Sequence record: NC_024146.1 | DNA length: 56,702 nt | DNA from: Enterobacteria phage 9g | Reading direction: 5' to 3' (one strand) | Shown: positions 1 to 28,374 of the stretch, one piece after another | Position numbering within the stretch: the first letter of the stretch is position 1 | How the letters are laid out: each line of letters opens with the position of its first letter | Notes under the pieces: generated by a model | What the model saw: the letters and a program-made list of their open reading frames with translations, nothing else | Database searches by the model: none | What the model was told of the DNA's origin: nothing | Made by a program: the position numbers and the translations under genes

Positions 1-1
1 T

Positions 2-36
2 GTGGGCCAGTACAAATGTATTGGCCCACTTTTTAT
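2..36 (+). terminator. Rho-independent terminator-like hairpin at the window start
   Basis: gtgggcca(2-9) / tggcccac(22-29), 8-bp stem, 12-nt loop, then TTTTTATT. Would close the plus-strand late operon if the window ends are joined; abuts the polymerase stop codon at 36. Confidence 0.45.
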
Positions 37-2009
37 TAAGCGGCGTATGCGAGTTTTTCCAGCAATTTTTCCGCTTTAGCTATGTACACTTCGTGGTTAA
101 GATCTGGCGGTAACTGATCAGTCAGTTCCATCATTGGTTTACCCCCTGCTGTCTTACCAACACGCCCACCACTCTTAACTATCAGTATTTCAGGTACTTC
201 TTCTTTTGTATAGTACCAGCGAACAACCTTACCTAACGGCTCACTATTCCACGCAGCTCCACCGTTAGCTGTCTTGATACAAACAAACTTACGAATATCC
301 TGACACTCTGTGATAGTTTTAGCAATTGGTGTACCGTCACGGAGAAGATTAACCACAGCATCCATAATGATTTCACCTTCTGCGTTTTTAGCAAGGCCTG
401 TCTCAGCGAACCAACCTTTACGCTTGGCTTTACCATCTGCCTTGATTGCGACGTAGTTGTTAACGTTTGCGGAGTTAAGGCGCAGGTACTGGTTCAACTC
501 CATTTCAAAGCCAGTTGTTTCTTCCCACCACTTAATGATATCTGTCATTAATTGCTTCTTAGCTTTGCAAGGCTTAATAACAATACCGTCCGTGTTAGCA
601 CTGACAACCTGAATACCGTTAAGCTCTAGTGTTTCAATAAGCATGAGCAGAGCTAACTGACCTGTGAGCGTAGTCTGAATAATAAGGTGCGGTGCATACA
701 GAATAGAGAACGGTGAACCGAACTTACCATAAGAACCGTTAATAACGATCTTAAGAGTTTGTGCGGTCTTATCGTCATGAGCCATCTTAGCTGCAATACG
801 TCGTTCTACGATCTTAACGAAGATATCTATAAAGCGCGGGCCCAGGTGCTCAGGATACAGTTGCTGGTTAATGATACAGATCGGGTAGTATGACGTTACG
901 TCAGCGTCCCACATCTCTTCATCTTCAGACGGTACAATCTCCATTAACTCTTCGCACGAGTGCAGACCACCGATACCCATGTTGTAAGTTGTCTGATTGA
1001 TTGTAAACTTCAAAGAGTTCATGGTTGATGGTTGCTTAATTTTACCGTCTTCTGCAACTCGGAAGTAACTATCAAGCACAACCTGAAATACGGACTTCAT
1101 TAGTGGCGTTTGGAAACCTAACCACACTGGAGGATTGTACTTAAAGGTTCTGCCAACTTCCACCATACCCTTCTGTGGTACGAAGCCCAGCATTTCCTTC
1201 ATTTCATGGCGGATTACAGCTTCTGCGATCTGTGCATCGGATTTAGAGCGAAGGTCTACTTTGTACTCCTCACTCATAATCTCACGTAGATGGATCTGCT
1301 CTTCCAGTGAGTTAAACAGAGCCATTGTTGTATCAAGGTCGTTAATGCAGTAGAAGCGCACAATAGCAATTTGTTCTACGGATAACGCCCAATGTGGTGG
1401 GAATGGTAAGTCCTGGAGCTTCTGCATGTGCATACGGCCGCCATACAACTTCAACGAACCGAAGCCAGGAGCCACCTCTTGAACGTCAATGTGGTCAATC
1501 CAAAACTGTTTTACACCAAAGCTGTTAAGAATGTCCCACGGAGCCCACTCTTCCTGGATCATCCTGTCACTTGCTTCTTTTAGCTTGTCAACAGTCAAAC
1601 CAGCAATGGCAAGGAATGTCATCGTATTATCGTAGTTTCTTGAGTTGAAACCAACGGTACGAAAGTTCTTCATTATCCATTCATATTTTTCCGTGTCAAG
1701 TGTCTGACCGGCAGTCATTTCTAGATAATAAACCTTGCCAAACTTAACCCCTTTAAACGCCACAAGAAAATAGTTCTTATAGCATTCTATATCGTATACG
1801 AACGTTTCTTGTGCAAAATACATTTCCACTAATTCACCGTCTGTCATACGCGGATCGTTAGCTGCAAAACGCATTGCTACATCAAGACCTGGAAGGTAGT
1901 CCGGACGCTCCCATACCCTTTCAACTGGTTGACGTTTTACTTTCTGTTTCTTTTCTTTCTTAGTGGGAGGTAAATCCTCCCAAAAGAAACCAATAGCATC
2001 TTTTCTCAT
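36..2009 (-). CDS. DNA polymerase, family B-like, with 3'-5' exonuclease motifs
   Basis: 657 aa. Exo I-like YDIECY; PolB motif A DVTSYYPICII (DxxSLYPS type); motif B KIVINGSYGKFG (KxxxNSxYG type); motif C-like SANTDG. ATG at 2009 overlaps the stop of the upstream gene (ATGA). Confidence 0.85.
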   Translation of the reverse strand: MRKDAIGFFWEDLPPTKKEKKQKVKRQPVERVWERPDYLPGLDVAMRFAANDPRMTDGELVEMYFAQETFVYDIECYKNYFLVAFKGVKFGKVYYLEMTAGQTLDTEKYEWIMKNFRTVGFNSRNYDNTMTFLAIAGLTVDKLKEASDRMIQEEWAPWDILNSFGVKQFWIDHIDVQEVAPGFGSLKLYGGRMHMQKLQDLPFPPHWALSVEQIAIVRFYCINDLDTTMALFNSLEEQIHLREIMSEEYKVDLRSKSDAQIAEAVIRHEMKEMLGFVPQKGMVEVGRTFKYNPPVWLGFQTPLMKSVFQVVLDSYFRVAEDGKIKQPSTMNSLKFTINQTTYNMGIGGLHSCEELMEIVPSEDEEMWDADVTSYYPICIINQQLYPEHLGPRFIDIFVKIVERRIAAKMAHDDKTAQTLKIVINGSYGKFGSPFSILYAPHLIIQTTLTGQLALLMLIETLELNGIQVVSANTDGIVIKPCKAKKQLMTDIIKWWEETTGFEMELNQYLRLNSANVNNYVAIKADGKAKRKGWFAETGLAKNAEGEIIMDAVVNLLRDGTPIAKTITECQDIRKFVCIKTANGGAAWNSEPLGKVVRWYYTKEEVPEILIVKSGGRVGKTAGGKPMMELTDQLPPDLNHEVYIAKAEKLLEKLAYAA

Positions 2010-2998
2010 AGACGAAATCCTACAATTACCCCACGTAGATTTTCACCATAAAAAATAATAGGAGTTGAAAGACCCCTTTCGTCCTTTTCATTGAAACGCG
2101 AAGCATCCCAATCTGTCGCAAGTCCTTTCAACTGCATAATGAGATCTATATTATACACGCCAATTGACTTAGATTCACGGAACATTGCACTAGCACCATC
2201 CAGCTCGTTGTAATGTGTGCGTACAACACCATTTTCCATGTAAATACGCCCATCCCGCTCACAGAACGGTTTTATCTTTTCTAAGCAATTAAAAAGCTCA
2301 GTATCAAGCGTATAGACGTTGGCCCCATTTTCTGTACGCTCAATTATCTTATCAATGTTAGGCCACTTTAATTCCAGCAATTGTGTACGCAACCAGCAAC
2401 CGTCTTCGTAGTGAAATGTCATACTGGTATCTGTACATTGAATTCTTACTGGTGGCTTTTTAATACGCAATAATTCTTTGATGGCCATACGTGGCACAAC
2501 ACAATCTACAGGGAATACAGCACCGAACCAATACTGTATAATACTAGCGTTGTTGGTCGCGTACATGCTGCCCTGTTTTACCAGCACGCCGCAAGACCAC
2601 GGGCGGGAAGCATCGTCGCTTATAAACGGCGTTACACGGCTTAAACCGTTGAGAAAAAGCTGACCGTCTATTTCGTGAATTGTTCCTTCTGGCTCTACGT
2701 GTGCAGTTGGTTTCTGAAGAGTATCCACACTGACCTTAAAGCCACCAGACTTAATGCTCAACTTACCATTCGCTAACATTGTCATCTGTACAGCTTCGTC
2801 ACATGCTGCAATAGCCTTGAGCATTGGTTCAGCTTTAGGAGTACAGTCAATATTTAGTGGTACTGGACTACATAATGAAATAGTTCCGTTAAACCCGCGC
2901 ACAGTACCATCAACAATACGGAAGTGAGTTAAACCTTCCTGAAGTTCTTTCTTAGCTACAGAACCCTGAACAAACTTTAAAGCATCAAGTAAATCCAT
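2006..2998 (-). CDS. Putative beta-sliding-clamp-like processivity factor
   Basis: 330 aa. Motif layout resembles DnaN: N-terminal L..ALKFVQGSV, then GKLSIKSGGFKVSVDTL (cf. DnaN ...RSGRSRFSLSTL) and ATNNASII (cf. ATDGHRLA). Translationally coupled to the polymerase. Call is from remembered motif pattern, not a search. Confidence 0.45.
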   Translation of the reverse strand: MDLLDALKFVQGSVAKKELQEGLTHFRIVDGTVRGFNGTISLCSPVPLNIDCTPKAEPMLKAIAACDEAVQMTMLANGKLSIKSGGFKVSVDTLQKPTAHVEPEGTIHEIDGQLFLNGLSRVTPFISDDASRPWSCGVLVKQGSMYATNNASIIQYWFGAVFPVDCVVPRMAIKELLRIKKPPVRIQCTDTSMTFHYEDGCWLRTQLLELKWPNIDKIIERTENGANVYTLDTELFNCLEKIKPFCERDGRIYMENGVVRTHYNELDGASAMFRESKSIGVYNIDLIMQLKGLATDWDASRFNEKDERGLSTPIIFYGENLRGVIVGFRL

Positions 2999-3006
2999 AA
3001 GTAACC

Positions 3007-3960
3007 TTATTCGTCAAATAAATCCTGGAGACGTTCGTTGAACTTCCCATTGTGGTTAGCAAGAATCATAGCGTTGACCACACCATACGCCCATAAATTG
3101 TATGCAGCGCGTGATTCGTATATGGTTGAAAGTCGTTCGTATGTGAAACCTGACTCCTCTAAGTAGCGCAGAACATTATTCTGTTCTATTTCTGAAAGAT
3201 TACAGATGTGCTGCCCTTGATAGTGGCGTGACGGTGACTTTTCAGATACCTGCATTGGGCCCCACTTAGGAGTTTCAATAGCACCAAACGCCGCAGATTG
3301 AATCCAGGAGGATGAGTCACAGGAGTACCACGGGTAACGCTCCATAAGCGGGCGGGACGTAATACCAAAACCATGAACTTTAATCTTAGCGCGTCCACTA
3401 CCGTCCACAAGGTGCTTATCCCATACCCTGTCCAACCATACCTGAAGTTGTTGTGTACTCGCTCCAACAAGACCACCGAGCGTGATATACTCATAGTTTC
3501 GCACATAATGGTCCAGGTATTCAAAAGGTTCACCGGCGTGGAAGCATGGTAAAGGTCTTACACCTCTGGCTTCCATCTCTTCCTGGTTGCGCCACGTTTG
3601 AAGTGGATCACCAATACCATCGAGTACAGAAGCCATAAGCGAACCATCTTCCACACGGATGATATCTATGTTTCGTTGGATGTAATCACAGTATTCTTTA
3701 ACCGATAACGTAACTCCCAAAGTGTAAGCTGAGAACGCTCCGGAGTCGAGGAATATCTTGGCCCCATCGGCACGCATGGCATCAACATAGGATTGCTTTC
3801 CAACGTAGTGCCAGGATTCGAGAATGTTTGGAATATTTTCGACAACACGTTTTTCTTGTTCGTTGAGTTTGACATAGCGGTTCATTCCTGGTTTATAGCT
3901 GTTCGTATATACGGCAGCCATATAAATCTGAAAGGTATAGTTGATATCTTGTCTGTGCAT
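3007..3960 (-). CDS. dpdA: DpdA-like DNA-guanine transglycosylase (TGT superfamily) for 7-deazaguanine insertion into DNA
   Basis: 317 aa. TGT-like IFLDSGAFSAY (cf. TDSGGFQ) and overall TGT-like length; sits at the 3' end of the folE-queD-queC-queE operon. ATG at 3960 preceded by GGTGA. Confidence 0.75.
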   Translation of the reverse strand: MHRQDINYTFQIYMAAVYTNSYKPGMNRYVKLNEQEKRVVENIPNILESWHYVGKQSYVDAMRADGAKIFLDSGAFSAYTLGVTLSVKEYCDYIQRNIDIIRVEDGSLMASVLDGIGDPLQTWRNQEEMEARGVRPLPCFHAGEPFEYLDHYVRNYEYITLGGLVGASTQQLQVWLDRVWDKHLVDGSGRAKIKVHGFGITSRPLMERYPWYSCDSSSWIQSAAFGAIETPKWGPMQVSEKSPSRHYQGQHICNLSEIEQNNVLRYLEESGFTYERLSTIYESRAAYNLWAYGVVNAMILANHNGKFNERLQDLFDE

Positions 3961-4029
3961 TGTTCACCTAACAAATAAGCGCCCGTAGGCGCTTATTATA
4001 TTAAAGATAATGTATGATTCGCAAATCAG

Positions 4030-4644
4030 TTACTTTTTACACGCTTCAAGAAATTCCCGACGCCATGTGTCACCAGTCACGTCCGGTAATACACCATCAC
4101 CCAATGCAGTACGTCCGCGGAATGCTTTAGTGATGGTTGAGCTTCCGCATACCTGTTTAACACCGCGCGACTCCATGCACATATGTTTTGCATCGATGTA
4201 GACACACACAGCTTTCGGGTCTAAGTGTTCCACGATAGCATCCGCAATCTGATTAGTCAGACGTTCTTGGACTTGCAAACGTCGAGCGAAAGCATCAACT
4301 ACCCGAGATAACTTGCTGAGACCGACGATTTTTCCATTTGGGACATACCCAACCACTGCATGACCAATAATAGGAGCCATGTGATGCTCACAATGACTAT
4401 ATACAGGGATATCACGGACGATGACCATTTCATCACAGTTTTCCCCACCATCTTCAAATGTCTTGAACAGGGATGCGATATCAACAGAATAACCCCCGAA
4501 CCATGTAGCATAAGCCTTAGCTACACGATCTGGAGTTTCTACTAGACCTTCACGCAAGTCATCGCCACCTTCAATCAACTTTAAAATCTTTTCAATACTG
4601 TGCGAAATTTCTGCTCTGTTTGTCATCTTTGTAAATTCATTCAT
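4030..4644 (-). CDS. folE: GTP cyclohydrolase I (FolE)
   Basis: Clear FolE core: ETPDRVAKAY, VIVRDIPVYSHCEHHMAPI, GLSKLSRVVDAFARRLQVQERLT. The longest ORF begins with TTG at 4680 and overlaps queD; the ATG at 4644 with an upstream AAGGA is preferred (4626 is an alternative). Confidence 0.88.
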   Translation of the reverse strand: MNEFTKMTNRAEISHSIEKILKLIEGGDDLREGLVETPDRVAKAYATWFGGYSVDIASLFKTFEDGGENCDEMVIVRDIPVYSHCEHHMAPIIGHAVVGYVPNGKIVGLSKLSRVVDAFARRLQVQERLTNQIADAIVEHLDPKAVCVYIDAKHMCMESRGVKQVCGSSTITKAFRGRTALGDGVLPDVTGDTWRREFLEACKK

Positions 4645-4670
4645 GGTTTGCAGTTTCCTTGTGTGGTCAA

Positions 4671-5204
4671 TTATTTGCAATAGTTAACATGGCATTTGGA
4701 CGTTTCTTCAATGGTGCATTCTACCAATTCAACACCATATTGGTCAAGTAGTTGAGGACCAATTACGTCAACCATATATGCAGCTAAGTTTTCCGCAGTT
4801 GGGTTGAATGGTAAAGCTACCAAAGAATTAAAGAAAGGATCGTAATCTTCATCCGTCACTAAATTGTTCTCACGTGCAAACTTAGTTGATGCAACAACAA
4901 TGAGCGAATTAATCATGCTGTCTTGTTCCCAATGCAGGAACTTATGATCCCAATTATCTTCCAACCACTGGCAGAGCGTAGTTTTAACCACACTAAAGTC
5001 GATAACCCGACCTACGTCGTCCAGCGAACCTTCTAGAGCAAATCCACTTACAGACTTAACGTAACCTTCCGACAATGTTTTCTTTGGTGCAACTTTAAAA
5101 TGGAACTTATAGTTGTGACCATGAAGATGACGACATTTGCTTTCATGCCCTACAACACGATGCCCAGCGCAAATCTCATGTGAACGAATAACAGTGTAAC
5201 CCAT
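4671..5204 (-). CDS. queD: 6-carboxy-5,6,7,8-tetrahydropterin synthase (QueD / PTPS family)
   Basis: 177 aa. N-terminal CAGHRVVGHESKCRHLHGHNYKF (Cx..HGH zinc/catalytic motif of QueD/PTPS). Confidence 0.85.
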   Translation of the reverse strand: MGYTVIRSHEICAGHRVVGHESKCRHLHGHNYKFHFKVAPKKTLSEGYVKSVSGFALEGSLDDVGRVIDFSVVKTTLCQWLEDNWDHKFLHWEQDSMINSLIVVASTKFARENNLVTDEDYDPFFNSLVALPFNPTAENLAAYMVDVIGPQLLDQYGVELVECTIEETSKCHVNYCK

Positions 5205-5206
5205 TT

Positions 5207-6622
5207 TTATTCCTCGTTTTCGTATTTAATAACTTCTTGTGCGTTATTAATATTAAACGCAGTCCGGCGCATCATGCAAGGGCCGCAAGTACCGCAATGC
5301 AAATTCCCGTTACGGTAACAACTCCAGGTGTGCTCCAACGGGGCCCCTAAACGCAGACCTGTAGCGACAATTTCGTGCTTCATTAAGTTACCTACAGGCA
5401 TGAGCACTTCAACGCGCTTACCATCCCCTACAGCGAACGGTAACACCTGATTAAAGCGATTAATAAACTCAGGTTCGTTGTCCGGATAGGCTCCAGCTTC
5501 TTCTAGGTTGTTACCAAGAACAATATAGTCGAAACCGTTAGCTTCTGCGTATGCAGTAGCAACAGAAAGCATCACAAGGTTACGAGCTGGAACCCATTCA
5601 TGCGCAAACTCAGCGCCTTCTTCACCGCCAGCGATTGCAGCATCTTGATCAAATAATGGGCTATCCTTCTTATCATAAATTGGGATTGGAAATTCAATTA
5701 ATGGAACCCCCATCACTTCCGCAATCTTACGAATAGCATACAGCTCATTAGTTTCTGCACGACAACCATATTGGAAGTTAATCAGAGTAACATCTAAACC
5801 ATTGGACTTACACATTTGAGCTGCTACTGTGCTGTCCATACCACCACTGGCGACAACTAACGCGCGTTGAGTCTGCTTATTTGGAATAAGATCAACTTCA
5901 TTGCATACATCAGTTGATGTAACCACATTACATGAATAAGGCTTCAGCATCTGCTTAATAGCGCGGTTGGGTAGCATGTCTTCCTGGCTGGCGAAATACA
6001 TACCAGTATCAGTCTTACCAATCCAGATTGGACGATAATTACATGCTGTAAACACGCATCCCGGAAAGGAATCATGTGTTGCAAGGATTGCGAAGCTACC
6101 TTTCAATTTGCGAACAACTTCATGAAACACACTGTACAGGTAATTAAAGTCAGACAAACACATTTCATCTGCTGAAAGTGTACATTCTGCTAACTGTTCG
6201 ACAATCGCAGCACTATCAATCTTAGTCTGCAGGGCATAGGTACGAATGTCTTTATCGTTCGCAATAGTACCGTTATGAACAATAGTCCAATCATCCATGT
6301 GATACGGTTGCTGGTCCCACTCATTCTTGTCAACAATCCACTCTGTAGTCGGTTCAGCGCGAGCGTTACCAATCATTGTGAAGCTACCAATAGCTCCAGC
6401 ATGAGATGCAATGCGCCCAACTTTAACAAGACGTTCCAGTGACGTTTCCTTACCGACACTAACGATACGTTGCGGGTGCATACTGTGGTCACCATGCGTA
6501 AAGCGTACACCAAGACCATCACGACCACGCTTGATACTGGCTTTAATAAGATCCTCAATGTCGTTACGGATAATAAGACTTTCAGGTTGACCGTTAGTAA
6601 TAACACCAAAGATAGAGCACAT
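5207..6622 (-). CDS. queC: Gat-QueC fusion: class II (Ntn) glutamine amidotransferase domain fused to a QueC-like 7-cyano-7-deazaguanine synthase domain
   Basis: N-terminus after the start Met is CSIFGV (Cys2 nucleophile, as in AsnB/GlmS-type GATases). C-terminal half has the PP-loop SGGMDS, VPARN, and the zinc motif CGTCGPC of QueC. Start set to the internal ATG at 6620-6622 so that Cys is residue 2; it lies 1 nt after the upstream gene's stop. Confidence 0.85.
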   Translation of the reverse strand: MCSIFGVITNGQPESLIIRNDIEDLIKASIKRGRDGLGVRFTHGDHSMHPQRIVSVGKETSLERLVKVGRIASHAGAIGSFTMIGNARAEPTTEWIVDKNEWDQQPYHMDDWTIVHNGTIANDKDIRTYALQTKIDSAAIVEQLAECTLSADEMCLSDFNYLYSVFHEVVRKLKGSFAILATHDSFPGCVFTACNYRPIWIGKTDTGMYFASQEDMLPNRAIKQMLKPYSCNVVTSTDVCNEVDLIPNKQTQRALVVASGGMDSTVAAQMCKSNGLDVTLINFQYGCRAETNELYAIRKIAEVMGVPLIEFPIPIYDKKDSPLFDQDAAIAGGEEGAEFAHEWVPARNLVMLSVATAYAEANGFDYIVLGNNLEEAGAYPDNEPEFINRFNQVLPFAVGDGKRVEVLMPVGNLMKHEIVATGLRLGAPLEHTWSCYRNGNLHCGTCGPCMMRRTAFNINNAQEVIKYENEE

Positions 6623-6623
6623 A

Positions 6624-7385
6624 TTATTTACCTTCCTTAACCATTTCAATTTCACGCTCAACGGATGCAATAATATCGTTGAGGTCTTCCAGTACGTCTT
6701 TATGACCGCGCTCACCCGCACACAGCACCTTCTTCAGTGCATGTTGCATGGGCCCACTGGTTACATTGAATGCTTTAATTACGTCGTACACGTCAACCCA
6801 TACATCAATTTCGATTGGGCTACCGTTAATGTCATGGGATTCAAAAGTTTTAATTTTGCGCATATATTTATTTGGACGTGGAGCTTTAATCTCCTGGATA
6901 CAACCATTGTCGATAAACGTTTCTTTAATGAATACTTCAGGATTGCCTTCTTTGTCATGATCAACGTTAAAGACATTCGTAAGTAGATCGTCCATGATAC
7001 TTGTTAATTTATGAGTAGACGTTGTGTACTTCATGGTATTCGCTTCCGCTTCCTCTGCTGCTTTCTGACTTCTTCTGGCAGAAGTATTGATACGCCATTT
7101 GTAGAGTGCATTACGTGGAGGTGTTACATGCGTGTTGTAGACCGTCTTTAAGTTCATAAGATCGTGTCCATCCATACCTTCAACAAAGACAGTGAGTGCA
7201 GGACAACTATCGTTCAGAACATCCACCAAATATCCTTCCCGAATTACAGATGCAAGAGCTGCATGTGACGCAGCTTGAGAAACTGTGGTTACATAATGTT
7301 TCACAAATCCGTCTTCATCAAACAGACACTGGTTCAACACATTTTCTGGAACAATTTCACCGAGTAATTGAACGTACTTATTCAT
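6624..7385 (-). CDS. Hypothetical protein embedded in the 7-deazaguanine operon
   Basis: 253 aa, ATG at 7385 with AAGGT upstream; tightly packed between queE and gat-queC. No motif recognised by eye. Confidence 0.6.
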   Translation of the reverse strand: MNKYVQLLGEIVPENVLNQCLFDEDGFVKHYVTTVSQAASHAALASVIREGYLVDVLNDSCPALTVFVEGMDGHDLMNLKTVYNTHVTPPRNALYKWRINTSARRSQKAAEEAEANTMKYTTSTHKLTSIMDDLLTNVFNVDHDKEGNPEVFIKETFIDNGCIQEIKAPRPNKYMRKIKTFESHDINGSPIEIDVWVDVYDVIKAFNVTSGPMQHALKKVLCAGERGHKDVLEDLNDIIASVEREIEMVKEGK

Positions 7386-7447
7386 AATGATTTACCTTAT
7401 CAGTTGAACATACCATGTCTTCCAGCGTGTTTTGAATATGTATAACT

Positions 7448-8212
7448 TCACTCTACGCCTAAATATTTATGAATCTGCAATTGCACGATGTAATTGTGCT
7501 TCATTGCATATTTAACGACAGCTTGAGCGTTTGCTTTATTAGCATCGTCGTCCTGTTCATCCATAGGTTGAAGATAAATTTTACCTTTAAAGTGTACAGG
7601 TGGACGTGCGATAAATGGTGTCGCACGGTGATCCAGTGCCTGCAACGGTAATCCATCTTCCTCGTTGACGTTTCCGCTTTTCATTACATATTTGAAAGCA
7701 TCCGCTCGAGCGGAAACGCTAGGGTGGACCTTTGCTGCCTTAGGACTACATACTACCACACAGTTATAGTTGAGTTCACGCGGGATAGGCATAGTTCCGT
7801 TAGTTTCAACCTGTACACGATAACCTTTCATATCAATGAGGTAATTGATAAAATTAGCAACTTCAGGTTGACGGAAAGGTTCGCCGCCCGTAATGACAAC
7901 TAAGTCAGTCTTGGCTTCACCAGTGACACGGACAATCTCTTGCCAAATGTCACCGTGATTCATCTTCTTACGATTGGACGTATAGTTTGTATCACATCCT
8001 GGGCATTGCAAATTACAACCAGCTAATCGAACAAACACGGCAGGTTGACCACAAAATGGGCCTTCGCCTTGAATGGTATGAAAAATGGAATGCACGTCAA
8101 GAATACCACGTTCACGAACTAACTTCTCAGGTTCCTGAGTATTAATAATTTTCATATGATTTCCAAATTTGGCTTGAGCCCAGTGGTGGGCGATAATGGC
8201 TTGTGCAAACAT
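7448..8212 (-). CDS. queE: 7-carboxy-7-deazaguanine synthase (QueE), radical SAM
   Basis: IFHTIQGEGPFCGQPAVFVRLAGCNLQCPGCDT carries the QueE N-terminal signature and the CxxxCxxC radical-SAM cluster. The longest ORF starts with TTG at 8236; the ATG at 8212 preceded by GAGGT is preferred (8155 is an alternative). Confidence 0.85.
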   Translation of the reverse strand: MFAQAIIAHHWAQAKFGNHMKIINTQEPEKLVRERGILDVHSIFHTIQGEGPFCGQPAVFVRLAGCNLQCPGCDTNYTSNRKKMNHGDIWQEIVRVTGEAKTDLVVITGGEPFRQPEVANFINYLIDMKGYRVQVETNGTMPIPRELNYNCVVVCSPKAAKVHPSVSARADAFKYVMKSGNVNEEDGLPLQALDHRATPFIARPPVHFKGKIYLQPMDEQDDDANKANAQAVVKYAMKHNYIVQLQIHKYLGVE

Positions 8213-8280
8213 TTGAACCTCGGGGTAAGATAACAAAGGGGCAGTAAATGCCCCTTCTGAGTTTCCGAAGTATCTACAGA

Positions 8281-9105
8281 TTACTCTGCAGTTTTCTGAG
8301 ACGGAATTTCTACGTTAGCGGCCGCTTGTGCAATATTAGCAGGTACTGGAACGGATACGCGACCAGTAATGCCCATGTATTTCTTCCAGCGAGCGTATTC
8401 CGCTTTGACGTTCGCTTCGTTCAGGCCTTTGTCCAGTGCAACAGGCAGAACGTAGCTGATCGGCGCAGTCTGACCGAGCTCCAGGGTCACAGCGTCAAAG
8501 ATATCCCATGCAGCACGGCACAGAGTACCGACACCTGGCTTGCGAATACCGTTCTGTTCAGGCTCTTTCTTAGCTTCGCGTTCTGCTGCTTTACGAGCAC
8601 GCTCTTCGTCCTGCAGACGTTTCTTCTCAGCGCGTTGTGCGTCACGTTGCGCTTTTTCAGCGGCCTTAGTGGCTTCGCGGGCAGCGGATACACGACCTTT
8701 AACATCTTTCAGAGTGGATTCAATGGAGGAAACCAGATCTTCAGATGCTGCAACGGCAGTTTTCAGCTGATCGTTGTCTTTAACTTTACGTGCTGCCGCT
8801 TTAACAGCTTTCAGACCTTCTTTAGCGGTCTTCAGTTGAGCGGTAACTACGCCTTCAACTGCTTTAACTTCGTCCAGCAATGAACCTTCGTTCAGGGTCG
8901 CGAACTGTTCTTTAACAGCGGACACAGCACCTTCGATCACATTGTAACCGGCAGTGGCTTCGTTCAATGCGGCGTCAACTTTAGCCTGCAATTCACGTGC
9001 TGCTTTTTCTTCAGCTTCACGTTTTTTCTTTGCTTCAGCTTCTTTTGCTGCTTTCTTTGCTGCTTCTTCTGCTTCCAGTTGTTCTGGAGTTTTCTCTTTA
9101 GCCAT
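8281..9105 (-). CDS. Hypothetical coiled-coil protein (Ala/Glu/Lys-rich)
   Basis: 274 aa, ATG at 9105 with GAGGAT upstream; N-terminal ~190 aa are a low-complexity helical A/E/K repeat. Confidence 0.6.
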   Translation of the reverse strand: MAKEKTPEQLEAEEAAKKAAKEAEAKKKREAEEKAARELQAKVDAALNEATAGYNVIEGAVSAVKEQFATLNEGSLLDEVKAVEGVVTAQLKTAKEGLKAVKAAARKVKDNDQLKTAVAASEDLVSSIESTLKDVKGRVSAAREATKAAEKAQRDAQRAEKKRLQDEERARKAAEREAKKEPEQNGIRKPGVGTLCRAAWDIFDAVTLELGQTAPISYVLPVALDKGLNEANVKAEYARWKKYMGITGRVSVPVPANIAQAAANVEIPSQKTAE

Positions 9106-9160
9106 GATTTAAATCCTCACAGTGTGGTTATTGGTTGTGAACTACGTTCTAAGTGGTTGC

Positions 9161-9189
9161 ACTATAACCCCTCTAAAAGAACTATGCAA
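9161..9189 (-). promoter_or_regulatory. Candidate sigma70-type promoter (-35 TTGCAT, 17-bp spacer, -10 TATAGT) for gene 8281..9105
   Basis: On the minus strand: TTGCAT (9189-9184), 17 nt, TATAGT (9166-9161), ~55 nt upstream of the ATG. Confidence 0.35.
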
Positions 9190-9201
9190 TAATTTAGTTA
9201 A

Positions 9202-9924
9202 TTAATTTAAGCCACGTTCTTTTACCCAGACCCCTAATGTATTACTTGATGTATTACGCTTCACACCTTGTGCCTCTAAACGATCCATCATTTGTTTTCT
9301 AAGCTGTAGGATTTCCTTCTTGTCACGAGGTTCACCAGCTTCTTTCCACATTTCGTCAGCAATAACGAAAATAATATCGCGAGTGCCGGCTGTACGCAAC
9401 GTTGCGGCACGTTTTTCGTTTGTCGGTGTGCTAGTACCTTGCCGCTCCCTTGTCGGTGTCCATGCCCCTTGTATGCCCATATTTGTTTGTACGGTTGGGC
9501 CGTCAATGATGGTGGATTCCAATGAACTATCATTCCGTACTTGAATATTAGGCTCCTCCCCCAAATCTGGAACAGAGCTGCCTTCGCGGTACATGCACTC
9601 ACCCTCTTTATTACTAGCAATTGCCCAGTCCGCTTGTTCAGCCACATCCGCATCTATCACTGTCTCCGGTATTTCATTTAAAAAGTAATGGATGATCTTA
9701 CTGATCATTTTCTTTGGATATAAAGCACCTTGCTTATTACCCGTTAAGTTGATATACAAAAGTTGCATTTGCACATCATCAAACTCTTTATACAGTTCTT
9801 CAACTTCTAACGGAAGAACTACAGAACTTTCGCTACAGCATAGAATTCCATACTCATGAAGACGTTGGAAGTTTGGATGCTTGGCTAATACCTGCATCCG
9901 ATCATAATCAATTAAGACGTACAT
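9202..9924 (-). CDS. Hypothetical protein
   Basis: 240 aa, ATG at 9924 with GGAAGGA upstream. Confidence 0.6.
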   Translation of the reverse strand: MYVLIDYDRMQVLAKHPNFQRLHEYGILCCSESSVVLPLEVEELYKEFDDVQMQLLYINLTGNKQGALYPKKMISKIIHYFLNEIPETVIDADVAEQADWAIASNKEGECMYREGSSVPDLGEEPNIQVRNDSSLESTIIDGPTVQTNMGIQGAWTPTRERQGTSTPTNEKRAATLRTAGTRDIIFVIADEMWKEAGEPRDKKEILQLRKQMMDRLEAQGVKRNTSSNTLGVWVKERGLN

Positions 9925-9944
9925 GTTAATCCTTCCAATTAAAA

Positions 9945-11948
9945 TTAAAACGGAATGTCGTCATCAAAATCTGGTGGTAGTTCTTTACCGTTACCAGTAA
10001 GAATAGGTTGATTAGACGTAGAATGCAATACCGTCGTACGGGAATCAGTCTGCTCATCTTCATCAAACTTATTCGTATAACTGCTACCAAACTGGGACAG
10101 ACCATTCATTGCTGCAATTTGTACAACCGGACGTTCGTTTGTTGCTTCTTTCTTACCGAATTCACTACCATCATAACAACTATTCAACACTTCAGGGAAC
10201 TTACCCTTCAAGTTGACATAAATGTGCGTCGGTACACGAAGCTGGCTGACCACATTGAGGGCTTCATCAATGTTAGCTGGGATTGCCAGGCTACAATGCT
10301 CACGCCACCAGTTACGCGCTTTCTTGCCCGCAAAGCCAGTATGGAACAAGCAGATGTATTGTTGGATAGTTTGTGAGCCACAAAGATAGTCGACACGAAG
10401 TGTTGGTGGTTTAGAACGGTCACCCCTGTTCTCGTGGCGGTAGTAACTCACCATATCAACTTTCAACACTTCAGTAACTGGTAAATCATTCTTGATAATA
10501 GCTTTCGTACTAGCACTCGCCATTAGTTTCTTCTCAAAAGTAAACTCATGACCGCAATAACCAGCACGGCACGCTTTATTATTTGTAATGGTATAACCTG
10601 ATCCTTGCAGATAGAGTATTTCTTCATGCGACATACTGCTTGTGTCGAATGGTTTTAACCCACCACAGAAGCGAACTGACGCATGGTTCCATGTTTTACA
10701 TATTGGGCATTCCTTAACAGGTGCAGCGGATTTTCCTTTCTGCCCTGGGCGCTTAGGAATAACAGGGTCATTAATAGGCCCAAGGCGTCTTGTGTTACCT
10801 GCATAATCCAATACAAGACAGTTCTGTTTATGCGAAGCGGAGATAGCTTGCAAACGACCCTCCGTTGTGGTCAAATCAAAACCATCTGCATAATCAGGTC
10901 GTGTACCACGTCCAAGCATCTGAACCCACAAACGGGAAGATTGAGATGGTCGCATACCAATTATCAAATCAAGTCCCGGATGGTCAAAGCCTGTCGTTAA
11001 TACGTTGTTGTTTGCTATTGCCTGTAAACGACCAGCTTTAAAATCAATAAGATACTGGTCACGCAAGGCTTTAGGTGTGTCACCAGTTACAACTTCACAA
11101 CTAATACCGCGCTCGTTGAGGTAGTCTTTAACATCTTTTGCATGGTCTACACCAGCACAAAAGACAAGCCAACTCATTCTATTCTCTTCTTCCGCAATAC
11201 TAATTGCATCATCTAATAAATGGCGAGTTACATCAGGATCGTTTACAACCTTTTGAAGCTCACTTTCAATGAACTCACCGCCTCGAGTATGAACACCACT
11301 TACATCATACTCTTTCTTTGTTTTACGTGGTACTAACGGAACAAGATAACCTTCATCAATGAACCAGTTGAAGCACTCTACGGTACACGCGTTAAATACG
11401 ATTTCATCAAATAGAGCGTTAGGCGCATAATCATCTTTGATAATAGAACCAAAACCAAGACGCCAACTCGTAGCAGTAAGACCGATGATCTTTAGATATG
11501 GATTCTTTTCGCGAATGTGCGCAAAGAACTTCTGATAACTTGTTTGCTGATTTGGACTAATAAGGTCACATTCGTCAACTATAATAATATCAACGTCCTC
11601 AAAGTATTTAGCTTGTTTTGCAACAGACTGAATACCCGCGAACGTTATCATTGCATTCTTATCTTTGCGACCCATACCAGCACTGTAAATACCAGTCGGT
11701 GCTTCAGGCCACAACTTCTTAAATTTATCGTGGTTCTGGTCTATCAATTCTTTTACGTGAGTAATTACCATCATGCGGGTACTACCCCAATTATCGTGAA
11801 TTGTCTTTAATAGACCAGCAATTACAAGGGACTTACCAGTCCCTGTAGGCAACAAGATAACAGGATTTCCTGACTTTTCACCATGCTTGATGAAATAGCG
11901 CAATGTACTGTTTACAGCTTCTTGCTGATAATCACGTAGTTTGAACAT
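9945..11948 (-). CDS. Superfamily-2 DNA helicase (DEAD/DEAH-like) with C-terminal zinc-ribbon-like region
   Basis: 667 aa. DYQQEAV (Q motif), Walker A LLPTGTGKS, DExD-like IIVDECD, LTATSWR (motif III-like); CPICK...C near the C-terminus. Confidence 0.8.
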   Translation of the reverse strand: MFKLRDYQQEAVNSTLRYFIKHGEKSGNPVILLPTGTGKSLVIAGLLKTIHDNWGSTRMMVITHVKELIDQNHDKFKKLWPEAPTGIYSAGMGRKDKNAMITFAGIQSVAKQAKYFEDVDIIIVDECDLISPNQQTSYQKFFAHIREKNPYLKIIGLTATSWRLGFGSIIKDDYAPNALFDEIVFNACTVECFNWFIDEGYLVPLVPRKTKKEYDVSGVHTRGGEFIESELQKVVNDPDVTRHLLDDAISIAEEENRMSWLVFCAGVDHAKDVKDYLNERGISCEVVTGDTPKALRDQYLIDFKAGRLQAIANNNVLTTGFDHPGLDLIIGMRPSQSSRLWVQMLGRGTRPDYADGFDLTTTEGRLQAISASHKQNCLVLDYAGNTRRLGPINDPVIPKRPGQKGKSAAPVKECPICKTWNHASVRFCGGLKPFDTSSMSHEEILYLQGSGYTITNNKACRAGYCGHEFTFEKKLMASASTKAIIKNDLPVTEVLKVDMVSYYRHENRGDRSKPPTLRVDYLCGSQTIQQYICLFHTGFAGKKARNWWREHCSLAIPANIDEALNVVSQLRVPTHIYVNLKGKFPEVLNSCYDGSEFGKKEATNERPVVQIAAMNGLSQFGSSYTNKFDEDEQTDSRTTVLHSTSNQPILTGNGKELPPDFDDDIPF

Positions 11949-12961: not shown

Positions 12962-13888
12962 TTACTGTGCAGCGTCATCACCTTCAGTGGAACGTTTCCA
13001 CGGTGGAGTCTTGGTCTGAGCTGCTTTAGCGATATCGTCCTGGACTTCCGGTTCTGCATGGTTAGCAGTACCAGTGTTCTGAGCTTGAGTTTGCGGTTGC
13101 TCTGCTCCAGGCTGTACCTGCTGAGTTGCCCAGTTAGGCTGCTGTGTGGTTTGTTGCTGCTGCGGCTGCTGCGCACCAGTAGCCCACGGTTGAGATTGTG
13201 CCGCGCTGTTAAAATCAACTGTTCCAGACTGCTGCTGTTGCTGTACCGGCTGCTGCGGCTGTTGTTGCTGCTGCGGTTGCTGGAACCCCTGAGCCTGAGG
13301 TTGTTGCTGCTGTTGCTGCGGCTGCTGCCCAAATGCGCCCGGGAAACCCTGCTGCTGCGGTTGCTGCTGTTGTTGCTGAGCACCACCGAACGCACCACCA
13401 CCAAATGCTGGAGATTGTGCTGCCGCTGCCGGAGTTGATTTAGGCAGGTTAGCCATATCCGCCTTAGTTGCGTATACAACACCTTCCATATTATCAATTG
13501 CTTGATAAATCTGAGGTTCGTTGTTTGGCTCATAGCCAGGTTGCTGACGAACTTTCACTTTCAGGTTAAACGGAATACCGTGCAGTTGTTCCGTATCGTT
13601 CCAGACTGGAACTTTAACAGCACGAGACAGCTCTGCCAGTTCTTCCATTGCAATCTGTACAGCGACAGGGTTCGCGTTCTTGACGTTGTAACCGCCAAAC
13701 ATCACACGACCAGCAAAATCACCCTGCATGATCTTAAACTGAAGATTCAGACGCGCACCGCCTGGAGTTTTAGTCGGTTTGATTTCAGAGTTTACAATCT
13801 GAACAACATACCAACCAGCGGGCATCAAGCTGTTGTGTTGACGCTCTGCGTGTTGTCCAGCGTTAAATTGCATTCCTAAACCGGCCAT
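12962..13888 (-). CDS. Putative ssDNA-binding/annealing protein (DUF669-like) with long Gln/Pro-rich linker
   Basis: 308 aa, ATG at 13888 with AAGGGG upstream. Globular N-terminal domain followed by a ~110-aa Q/P/G-rich low-complexity segment; adjacent to a Sak4-like ATPase gene, as is typical for DUF669 proteins. Confidence 0.5.
   Translation of the reverse strand: MAGLGMQFNAGQHAERQHNSLMPAGWYVVQIVNSEIKPTKTPGGARLNLQFKIMQGDFAGRVMFGGYNVKNANPVAVQIAMEELAELSRAVKVPVWNDTEQLHGIPFNLKVKVRQQPGYEPNNEPQIYQAIDNMEGVVYATKADMANLPKSTPAAAAQSPAFGGGAFGGAQQQQQQPQQQGFPGAFGQQPQQQQQQPQAQGFQQPQQQQQPQQPVQQQQQSGTVDFNSAAQSQPWATGAQQPQQQQTTQQPNWATQQVQPGAEQPQTQAQNTGTANHAEPEVQDDIAKAAQTKTPPWKRSTEGDDAAQ
13093..13435. repeat. 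CAG/CTG-rich low-complexity DNA encoding the poly-Gln/Pro linker
   Basis: Runs of ctgctg/ttgctg on the plus strand (e.g. 13200-13400) correspond to QQQQQQPQQQ... in the minus-strand protein. Confidence 0.7.
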
Positions 13889-28088: not shown

Positions 28089-28374
28089 GTATAGTCATGT
28101 AATAGATAGCACACTAATCAAATAAAAAATAGTAACGCGTGTAATAATAAACAACGTTATAGTAGAGCGCATGACAGTCACATGACGTAACAATCACCTC
28201 ACCGACGATCACGGGACGTTATAGTAACGCCGCGGGGCGGCTCTTAGATCTCTGCCAAGGATTCATCGTTTGTAGATTATCTCGTCACTAGACACTTTAT
28301 ATCCTCACCTCACCTGCCCTATATTGTTCGTATAAAGTTAATTCCGTATATAAATACTCGAGAGGAGATCTATT

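Follow-up and report, generated by a model that had tools for sequence, protein, structure and literature searches.

What do the six genes at 3007-8236 of this 56,702-nt stretch (the window, i.e. all of the DNA analysed) make, and has such a system been described before? A sequence-only reading had seen in them a pathway that partially replaces dG by deoxyarchaeosine (dG+) in phage DNA and gives resistance to restriction. We found that the window is the genome of Enterobacteria phage 9g, a member of the genus Nonagvirus in the subfamily Queuovirinae, and that the region is its published archaeosine modification cluster; the reading is correct, and the system was already known. With corrected start codons, a protein look-up matched the six cluster proteins exactly and consecutively to AHN84519-AHN84524 of 9g, while the pac repeats in the window (28207-28239) adjoin the published cut at nt 28243, with coordinates as in PMC5567051. 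The nearest genomes other than 9g are 96% identical. Phage 9g is the source in which dG+ in DNA was first found. The features of the region are listed in Table 1.

Table 1. The modification cluster of the window and the elements at its two ends
Feature	Description	Coordinates	Strand	Length	Match or source
Terminator-like hairpin	AGAAGGGGCA-TTTAC-TGCCCCTTT and a T-rich tail	8235..8257	-		terminator scan
queE	CDG synthase, radical SAM	7448..8212	-	254 aa	AHN84524.1
gp07 (9g_00007)	'unknown ORF' of the sequence-only reading	6624..7385	-	253 aa	AHN84523.1
gat-queC		5207..6622	-	471 aa	AHN84522.1, exact
queD	CPH4 synthase	4671..5204	-	177 aa	AHN84521.1, exact
folE	GTP cyclohydrolase I	4030..4644	-	204 aa	AHN84520.1, exact
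dpdA (DpdA1 subfamily)	DNA guanine transglycosylase	3007..3960	-	317 aa	AHN84519.1, exact
Clamp gene	sliding-clamp-like processivity factor; context, outside the pathway	2006..2998	-		phrog_947 2.5e-82; TIGR00663 dnaN 1.1e-5

All six ORFs are transcribed from 8236 towards 3007. The strand had been omitted from the sequence-only reading, and three start codons had been wrong or left open. The description of six co-directional, tightly packed genes is borne out by the successive gaps from queE to the clamp gene, which with corrected starts are 62, 1, 2, 26, 69 and 8 nt, with no overlaps. Also as described, the cluster lies directly upstream of the clamp-like and polymerase genes, with the clamp gene starting 8 nt past dpdA and sharing 4 nt with the polymerase gene (36..2009). 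The same order, dpdA and then the clamp gene, is found in EC151, VpKK5, CAjan and Streptococcus phage MS1. From gene order, the six genes may be transcribed together with the clamp and polymerase genes, as an operon co-expressed with replication.

The hairpin is placed between queE and the upstream gene (8281..9105). The 76-nt stretch that contains it (8205-8280) has a folding energy of -23.5 kcal/mol (z = -3.3), and over the 106 nt surrounding the hairpin 9g, JenK1 and ChristophMerian show 100% identity, although these genomes differ by 4-10%. The hairpin is probably the 5' boundary or a regulatory element of the cluster. Within the gap between folE and dpdA there is a promoter-like site (TTGCGA-18-TATAAT, 4024..3995). 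The counts of promoters and terminators were not above shuffled expectation. This conserved hairpin just before queE and the promoter-like site speak against a single operon.

When the ORFs were compared with profile families, five of the six matched well beyond chance; dpdA had no match in Pfam or NCBIfam; every motif quoted for QueE, Gat-QueC and FolE was found. QueE carries its CxxxCxxC motif as C74-NLQ-C-PG-C (numbered from the TTG start) and matched PF04055 Radical_SAM at 1.2e-10 (42.2 bits, above the cut-off of 29.5) and phrog_2076 'QueE-like' at 1.7e-69, and its best NCBIfam matches were five QueE equivalog models at 76-93 bits, below their cut-offs of 200-300. The true start of queE is the ATG at 8212, which has a GAGG ribosome-binding site upstream and agrees with the relatives and with the exact match to AHN84524.1. 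A TTG start at 8236 was rejected as an over-extension lying inside the hairpin (8257..8235). QueD matched PF01242 PTPS at 1.2e-20 (74.2 bits, cut-off 22.4), phrog_2389 at 4.7e-55 and NCBIfam TIGR03367 at 2.3e-17. Because the TIGR03367 score of 63 bits is under the 89-bit equivalog cut-off, the distinction of QueD from PTPS rests on the C-x3-HGH signature, found in the translation as CRHLHGH, and on published complementation. FolE matched PF01227 GTP_cyclohydroI at 6.4e-63 and TIGR00063 at 196.7 bits (cut-off 181.6), and contains HCEHH (C97EHH, numbered from the TTG start). The TTG start at 4680 was rejected as an over-extension, and the form starting at ATG 4644 matches AHN84520.1 exactly. [quoted passage not shown]

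Gat-QueC joins a class-II (Ntn, Cys2) glutamine amidotransferase, at its N-terminus, to a QueC PP-loop ATPase. The QueC part matched PF06508 at 1.3e-55 over residues 253-458 of the 471-aa protein (286-491 of the 504-aa ORF from the GTG start) and TIGR00364 at 150.1 bits, just short of its 150.3 cut-off; the amidotransferase part matched GATase_7 at 1.5e-6 (28.7 bits, above the cut-off of 25). The amidotransferase had been called AsnB-like; the class-II Ntn assignment stands, but AsnB is too specific, the best NCBIfam match being the N-domain of GlmS (6e-11). The motifs are Met1-Cys2, S259GGMDS and C443GTCGPC. The GTG start at 6721 (504-aa ORF) was rejected; the ATG at 6622 gives Met-Cys and the protein of AHN84522.1. 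Gat-QueC takes CDG to the nitrile and the nitrile to the formamidine, setting the dG+ outcome. When dpdA and gat-queC are expressed in E. coli, dG+ reaches up to 18% of G, and wild-type-like levels of dG+ are also reached in a delta-queC host (PMC6884629).

Standard profiles do not suffice to call DpdA. PDB sequence searches with the 9g protein yielded nothing significant, and its match among the PHROGs is phrog_887 (2e-98). The PADLOC DpdA model gave weak matches to 8 of 12 divergent DpdA1 members (best 3.6e-4) and matched 9g itself at 0.02, the Pfam DpdA model matched one of the 12 (0.0011), and the only families matching these divergent members were bacterial DpdA models. Searching the PDB with a DpdA1 profile placed the DNA-guanine transglycosylase 7ui4 at the top, with a weak E-value of 0.078. 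In this alignment D72 and D215, which are invariant across DpdA1, fall on the DCGAF and IDSTT motifs of 7ui4. The 9g protein shares 69% identity with CAjan DpdA and keeps all nine residues of the predicted active site. In an hhalign comparison with E. coli Tgt the probability was 2% and the alignment covered the catalytic TDSGGFQ motif alone, and a fold search with the structure model of 9g DpdA, which is poor (pLDDT 52), gave no match. In bacterial DpdA and the TGT family, a zinc site (CxCx2Cx22H) pins insertion 8 to the barrel (PMC10164549). The 9g protein has no CxCxxC or CxxC and does not fit this zinc-site pattern, and its cysteines C91, C139, C214 and C253 are not conserved across DpdA1. 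On sequence grounds, matches that are weak but specific to bacterial DpdA, together with the conserved catalytic aspartates, hint at a DpdA. The earlier label of a TGT-superfamily dpdA met silence in the standard profile libraries, an outcome that the sequence-only reading had itself named as refuting, but published experiments override that silence. Phage DpdA functions in E. coli with Gat-QueC as its sole phage partner (PMC6884629).

We consider it almost certain that the cluster is the dG+ DNA-hypermodification system of 9g and works by the following pathway. FolE would convert GTP to dihydroneopterin triphosphate, and QueD would make CPH4 and QueE then CDG. The QueC half of Gat-QueC would make the 7-cyano base (preQ0), consuming ATP and ammonia, and the Cys2 glutamine-amidotransferase half would supply ammonia and turn the nitrile into the archaeosine formamidine. 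DpdA, as a TGT-like enzyme with D72 and D215 as catalytic residues, would take guanine out of already replicated double-stranded DNA and put the 7-deazaguanine base in. The outcome would be DNA with about one quarter of its guanines as dG+, refractory to most type II restriction enzymes. Published work on these exact proteins has demonstrated the activities of FolE, QueD and QueE, the insertion by DpdA, the need for Gat-QueC, the level of dG+ and the restriction resistance. In 9g virion DNA, dG+ makes up 25-27% of G (PMC10516641, PMC10484667), and the partial replacement predicted earlier has been verified by the published 9g experiments (PMC6884629, PMC10516641, PMC10484667). The predicted resistance is likewise on record, since 9g DNA resists BamHI, EcoRI, EcoRV and SwaI (PMC6884629) and about 71% of the type II enzymes tested (PMC5567051). 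The dG+ in 9g DNA serves to block host restriction enzymes. The host glycosylase Dag1 stops 9g and other phages with 7-deazaguanine modification pathways from replicating (bioRxiv 10.1101/2025.10.29.685425).

The cluster enzymes are derived from the tRNA queuosine/archaeosine pathway, and the deposited and PHROG names ('queuosine tRNA-ribosyltransferase', 'queuosine biosynthesis') would fit a cluster that puts queuosine or archaeosine into host tRNAs and so adjusts translation, with no DNA modification. However, LC-MS/MS found dG+ and dPreQ0 in DNA, an E. coli delta-tgt mutant is not complemented by 9g dpdA, the DNA phenotype stays in the delta-tgt host, and homologues of QueA, QueG and QueH are absent from such phages (PMC6884629). 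The 9g genome also encodes no tRNA. A role in tRNA modification has a negligible chance of being right and is already refuted by the published data.

A closer contest concerns the order of amidation and insertion, which the authors leave undecided (PMC6884629, PMC10484667) and which bears on the order of steps only, not on the identity of the cluster. DpdA may insert preQ0, with Gat-QueC then turning the DNA-bound dPreQ0 to dG+. DpdA alone accepts preQ0 and puts dPreQ0 into plasmid DNA (PMC6884629), and DpdA1 is described in the literature as preQ0-inserting (PMC10516641). Archaeal Gat-QueC, ArcS and QueF-L work on preQ0 already in tRNA (PMC10516641), and dPreQ0 traces (77 per 10^6 nt) persist when Gat-QueC is expressed below DpdA (PMC6884629). 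On the other hand, Gat-QueC in a delta-queC host supplies the deazaguanine for dG+ with DpdA yet fails to restore queuosine (PMC6884629); free preQ0 is therefore apparently not released, and a supply of it to DpdA is hard to square with these facts. Adding Gat-QueC also lifts total modification about 57-fold, from 790 per 10^6 nt with dpdA alone to 45,000 (PMC6884629), a rise that we count toward the base being made before insertion. Amidation after insertion has a substantial chance, somewhat short of even, and we prefer an order in which making (or channelling) the G+ base precedes its insertion.

The remaining gene of the cluster, gp07, has a variable, poorly conserved N-terminal part of about 170 aa and a conserved C-terminal module of about 60 aa (residues 191-251). 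No match to gp07 was found in Pfam, NCBIfam or the PDB, and its PHROG, phrog_18443, is a family without assigned function. Its AF2 model was poor (pLDDT 59.5), and a fold search with that model gave no match. A DUF3310 / T7 gp1.7 identity of the module was rejected: T7 gp1.7 matches DUF3310 at 4.5e-23, but hhalign of the module profile against it gave 0.3% probability, and a Pfam search of gp07 and 28 module proteins had zero matches, PF11753 included. Is gp07 a working accessory, e.g. a partner of DpdA or Gat-QueC in DNA binding, targeting or regulation, or a passenger? The 1-nt junction between gp07 and gat-queC is intact in all relatives, though other cluster junctions gained genes. A module copy lies within the deazaguanine cluster in 9g, JenK1, ChristophMerian, EC151 and CAjan (three phage lineages), exactly one per region searched, and in CAjan (gp40) and EC151 it sits between queC and queD. 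Against a working role, dpdA and gat-queC by themselves give the dG+ levels stated above in E. coli (PMC6884629), and the module is widespread: it occurs in 2,856 representative protein clusters, most of them made up of short phage proteins that stand alone and in unrelated contexts. Searches for a catalytic family, a fold or an informative fusion came up empty, and the N-terminal part is weakly conserved. An accessory role for gp07 is doubtful.

Compared with known systems, the window matches the 9g dG+ pathway (KJ419279; PMC6884629, PMC5567051, PMC10516641) in all six proteins and in the pac-site coordinates, and exact protein look-ups and published coordinates detected no difference. The dPreQ0 cluster of CAjan (Seuratvirus) shares with 9g folE, queD, queE, dpdA and the order running into clamp and polymerase; it also has a gp07-module protein inside the cluster and a homologous gene upstream of queE. 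In CAjan, unlike 9g, the QueC is a plain one that lacks the Gat domain, a preQ0 transporter of the YhhQ type is present, and small ORFs are more numerous (12 genes). The cluster yields dPreQ0, placed in GA and GGC contexts, and CAjan DNA is still cut by EcoRI and BamHI (PMC10484667). The bacterial Dpd system (Salmonella Montevideo DpdA/DpdB/DpdC; 7ui4) replaces DNA guanine by preQ0 with a TIM-barrel transglycosylase that has two catalytic aspartates, on whose motifs the phage profile puts D72 and D215. The bacterial enzyme depends on the DpdB ATPase and draws on preQ0 from the host. DpdC subsequently produces dADG, and with the restriction genes dpdD-K the whole forms a restriction-modification island. 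Phage DpdA1, by contrast, is active in E. coli with no DpdB. At 317 aa it is smaller than bacterial DpdA and lacks the zinc site of that protein, and modification levels with phage DpdA1 are far above those of bacterial Dpd (PMC6884629, PMC10516641). The archaeal tRNA archaeosine pathway (ArcTGT with ArcS, Gat-QueC or QueF-L) follows the same chemistry from GTP to preQ0 to formamidino-7-deazaguanine and shares with 9g the Gat-QueC fusion architecture and a TGT-superfamily transglycosylase (PMC6884629, PMC10516641). Its substrate is position 15 of tRNA, with amidation following insertion, whereas the substrate in 9g is double-stranded DNA.

The six ORFs in window 3007-8236 all lie on the minus strand and are read from high to low coordinates, in the order queE, the gp07 ORF, gat-queC, queD, folE and dpdA, with the sliding-clamp-like and polymerase genes directly after them. 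An exact-sequence look-up found all six cluster proteins identical to AHN84519-AHN84524, which are consecutive GenBank entries of phage 9g, and the cluster region shares 90-96% identity with its counterpart in Nonagvirus members (JenK1, HdK1 and ChristophMerian among them). The sequence-only reading had described six co-directional, tightly packed genes, and every motif quoted was confirmed in the translations: CNLQCPGC in QueE, the N-terminal Met-Cys, SGGMDS and CGTCGPC in Gat-QueC (an amidotransferase-QueC fusion), and HCEHH in FolE. The families named for QueE, Gat-QueC, QueD and FolE were likewise matched in Pfam, with Radical_SAM at 1.2e-10 for QueE, QueC at 1.3e-55 and GATase_7 at 1.5e-6 for Gat-QueC, PTPS at 1.2e-20 for QueD, and GTP_cyclohydroI at 6.4e-63 for FolE. 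Profile support was far above chance for five of the six ORFs, and NCBIfam and PHROGs were concordant.

Three gene starts were corrected. In queE, the TTG picked mechanically at 8236 falls within a terminator-like hairpin; the start is placed instead at the ATG at 8212, which follows a GAGG ribosome-binding site and yields the form annotated in relatives. For folE the start is the ATG at 4644, and for gat-queC the ATG at 6622 gives the Met-Cys N-terminus. With the corrected starts, the intergenic gaps are 62, 1, 2, 26, 69 and 8 nt.

Table. Genes of the 7-deazaguanine cluster, the two genes that follow it and the hairpin at its 5' edge
Feature	Window coordinates	Strand	Remarks
Terminator-like hairpin	8257..8235	minus	stable, T-rich tail; directly upstream of queE
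queE	5' end 8212 (ATG)	minus	254 aa; exact match AHN84524
gp07, hypothetical 9g_00007	7385..6624	minus	253 aa; exact match AHN84523
gat-queC	5' end 6622 (ATG; 5207-6622)	minus	exact match AHN84522
queD		minus	exact match AHN84521
folE	5' end 4644 (ATG)	minus	exact match AHN84520
dpdA	3007-3960	minus	exact match AHN84519
Sliding-clamp-like gene	2998..2006	minus	directly after dpdA
Family-B DNA polymerase gene	2009..36	minus	directly after the clamp-like gene

The agreement with the deposited record extends to the packaging site. Tsai et al. mapped cleavage by the 9g terminase to nt 28243, beside two repeats with the core SRYCRCGGGRCG (PMC5567051). This core has exactly two matches in the window, at 28207-28218 and 28228-28239 on the plus strand (0.09 expected by chance), and their position beside nt 28243 shows that the window follows the deposited 9g coordinates. 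For the 21-bp pac repeat the same authors mention a third copy, within 'tgt' (PMC5567051); none was found in dpdA at 17/25 identity or higher.

Archaeosine in DNA was first found in phage 9g, and the function of these genes has been studied directly. 9g folE, queD and queE each rescue the matching E. coli mutant; no complementation was seen with 9g dpdA in a tgt mutant, nor with 9g gat-queC in a queC mutant when queuosine was the readout (Hutinet et al., PMC6884629). When expressed alone, dpdA produces dPreQ0, the 7-cyano relative of 2'-deoxyarchaeosine (dG+), at 84-790 per 10^6 nt of plasmid DNA, and dpdA with gat-queC produces dG+ at 22,750-45,000 per 10^6 nt, equal to 9-18% of G (PMC6884629). 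The partial replacement of dG by dG+ that the gene set predicted is on record for 9g virion DNA, at about 25-27% of G (PMC10516641, PMC10484667). The predicted restriction resistance has also been reported, with virion DNA resistant to about 71% of the type II enzymes assayed, which numbered more than 200 (PMC5567051). The interpretation of the cluster is correct, and it had already been established experimentally for exactly these sequences. Two public names are at odds with the demonstrated functions: DpdA carries the deposited name 'queuosine/queuine tRNA-ribosyltransferase', while Gat-QueC is called 'L-glutamine-D-fructose-6-phosphate aminotransferase' in RefSeq and PHROG.

The DNA guanine transglycosylase DpdA is where a purely computational assignment is weakest: Pfam and NCBIfam profile searches of the 9g protein returned no match even at E = 10. 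The sequence-only reading had named such a failure as counting against it, but the function is given by published experiment. Neither the single 9g sequence nor a profile of its close homologues matched any PDB sequence. An AlphaFold model built on a shallow alignment (26 sequences, 70-99% identity) reached a pLDDT of 52, and Foldseek against the PDB gave no hit at E <= 0.001, with a TGT at rank 43. With a model of this quality, the failed fold search is best taken as uninformative rather than negative.

A divergent alignment was then built for DpdA1, the phage subfamily to which the 9g enzyme has been assigned (PMC10516641) and of which about 2,700 homologues exist. This alignment reaches down to 22% identity and includes Streptococcus and Cellulophaga phage sequences and the enzyme from Rosebush, for which dPreQ0 has been published (PMC6884629, PMC10484667). 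Matches to its members came from DpdA models alone: the PADLOC DpdA model matched 8 of the 12 members (best 3.6e-4; 9g itself 0.02), and Pfam PF23859 DpdA matched one (0.0011). Against the PDB, the divergent profile had as its top match, at a marginal E of 0.078, the DNA-guanine transglycosylase 7ui4, the DpdA of Salmonella Montevideo. In this alignment the invariant phage residues D72 (LDSGAF) and D215 (CDSSSW) fall on the bacterial DCGAF and IDSTT, and both catalytic aspartates are essential in bacterial DpdA (PMC10164549). Comparison of DpdA with E. coli Tgt by hhalign was non-significant, and the sole part aligned was the catalytic TDSGGFQ motif. The 9g protein is 69% identical to DpdA of CAjan, a Seuratvirus phage with dPreQ0, and all nine residues of the proposed CAjan active site (D72, S73, F76, D114, H141, G162, G163, F198 and D215) are identical in 9g. 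The statistics are weak but all signals point the same way, which makes the 9g protein a candidate member of the DpdA family; the function itself comes from the published experiment.

The order of the last two steps can be read in two ways, with the G+ base formed or channelled before its insertion or made from the inserted base afterwards. In a delta-queC host, Gat-QueC sustains normal dG+ levels yet queuosine stays unrestored (PMC6884629), and addition of Gat-QueC raises total modification about 57-fold (PMC6884629). Because of these two observations, we lean slightly towards formation or channelling of G+ before insertion. As to where DpdA acts, the related CAjan and iggy enzymes have a GA motif. 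Counted over both strands of the whole window, 26.3% of G lies in a GA context, which matches the measured dG+ content of 25-27%, but this share is non-discriminating because any single dinucleotide context accounts for 20-32% of G in the 9g genome; GA and GGC contexts together give 30.2%. The composition fits a CAjan-like GA motif as the target of 9g DpdA, which is only a prediction.

The gp07 ORF had been left as an unknown in the sequence-only reading, and the full protein has no Pfam, NCBIfam or PDB match. In an alignment of 63 detectable homologues, the N-terminal part is poorly conserved and the C-terminal ~60 residues are strongly conserved. An exhaustive search located this C-terminal module (residues 191-251, VDVYDV..AF....QHA.KK.LC.G.RGHKD...DL......R.IE) in 2,856 representative clusters, for the most part of short phage proteins that stand alone; the module has no Pfam or PDB counterpart. 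Its PHROG families are all of unknown function save one labelled 'ATPase'. The AF2 model of gp07 was poor (pLDDT 59.5) and a fold search with it found no match, and neither fused domains nor gene neighbourhoods of the module proteins were informative on function. Weak HTH-type Pfam matches of module proteins (E ~0.07-0.2) were judged to be noise, and a likeness of the module to DUF3310 was tested and rejected.

A search with a module HMM gave a single copy for every region examined, each time lying between queC and queD; inside the deazaguanine clusters these are 9g gp07, JenK1 gp35, ChristophMerian bas19_0033, an EC151 hypothetical protein and CAjan gp40. ChristophMerian carries three extra small hypothetical ORFs (5659-6567) at the queD/gat-queC junction (5204/5207 in 9g) and two (8792-9146) at the gp07/queE junction (7385/7448 in 9g). 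Since relatives carry extra ORFs there, these two junctions tolerate insertions, while the 1-nt gp07/gat-queC junction is intact even in ChristophMerian. If gp07 were an accessory of 7-deazaguanine DNA modification in phages that has so far escaped notice, this would account for the never-broken gat-queC junction and for the single copy that Nonagvirus, Seuratvirus and EC151-like phages keep between queC and queD. Such an accessory might link Gat-QueC with DpdA, or set the site choice or efficiency of DpdA. Two observations speak against its involvement: dpdA and gat-queC are enough for dG+ in E. coli (PMC6884629), and the module is also widespread outside any deazaguanine context. Overall, we consider an accessory role of gp07 unlikely.

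That the cluster is an operon co-expressed with replication, as had been proposed from the gene order, is an inference. Modification itself is regarded as post-replicative (PMC10516641). The tight gene spacing with the 8-nt dpdA-clamp gap, the dpdA-then-clamp order also seen in CAjan, EC151, VpKK5 and Streptococcus phage MS1, and the location of the cluster inside a minus-strand replication block with negative GC skew to ~24 kb all support it. It is complicated by the hairpin directly upstream of queE, by a promoter-like site within the 69-nt folE-dpdA gap, and by MS1, whose annotation puts a terminator and a promoter into the dpdA-dnaN interval. Counts of sigma-70 promoters and terminators in window 1-10,000 were not above the shuffled expectation; therefore no operon map can be drawn from these counts. 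The GC skew changes sign near 24 kb, where the minus-strand replication/modification block gives way to a plus-strand block. Between a Cas4-like exonuclease-type ORF and one of ATPase type, the replication block also holds a 308-aa ORF (12962-13888, minus) with long glutamine-rich low-complexity tracts (QQQQQQPQQQ...).

At the 5' edge of the cluster, a stretch of 106 nt ahead of queE (8195-8300, minus) is 100% identical in 9g, JenK1 and ChristophMerian, genomes that differ by 4-10%. The surroundings of the hairpin (8205-8280, 76 nt) fold at -23.5 kcal/mol (z = -3.3), and the hairpin-bearing stretch may act as a terminator or as a conserved leader with a regulatory role. Rfam models gave no match at their gathering scores anywhere in the window and thus detected no preQ1 riboswitch; no tRNA genes were found either. 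Adjoining queE upstream is a 274-aa Lys/Ala/Glu-rich ORF (8281-9105, minus) whose CAjan homologue gp46 (38% identity, E 1e-36) bears the annotation 'transcriptional activator FtrA domain', as does a gene at the equivalent position in EC151; the FtrA name has no support from any Pfam family.

The cluster is the type example of the phage dG+ system found anew, and as such it is already known. Unlike bacterial DpdA and TGTs, in which a CxCx2Cx22H zinc site is a defining feature (PMC10164549), the phage DpdA protein contains no such site. The 9g system is the founding case of a tRNA-modification pathway redirected to hypermodification of a viral genome. Its modification defeats most type II restriction enzymes, and hosts answer with glycosylases against 7-deazaguanine DNA, such as Dag1, which is reported to stop replication of 9g and of other phages with a 7-deazaguanine pathway (2025 preprint, bioRxiv 10.1101/2025.10.29.685425).
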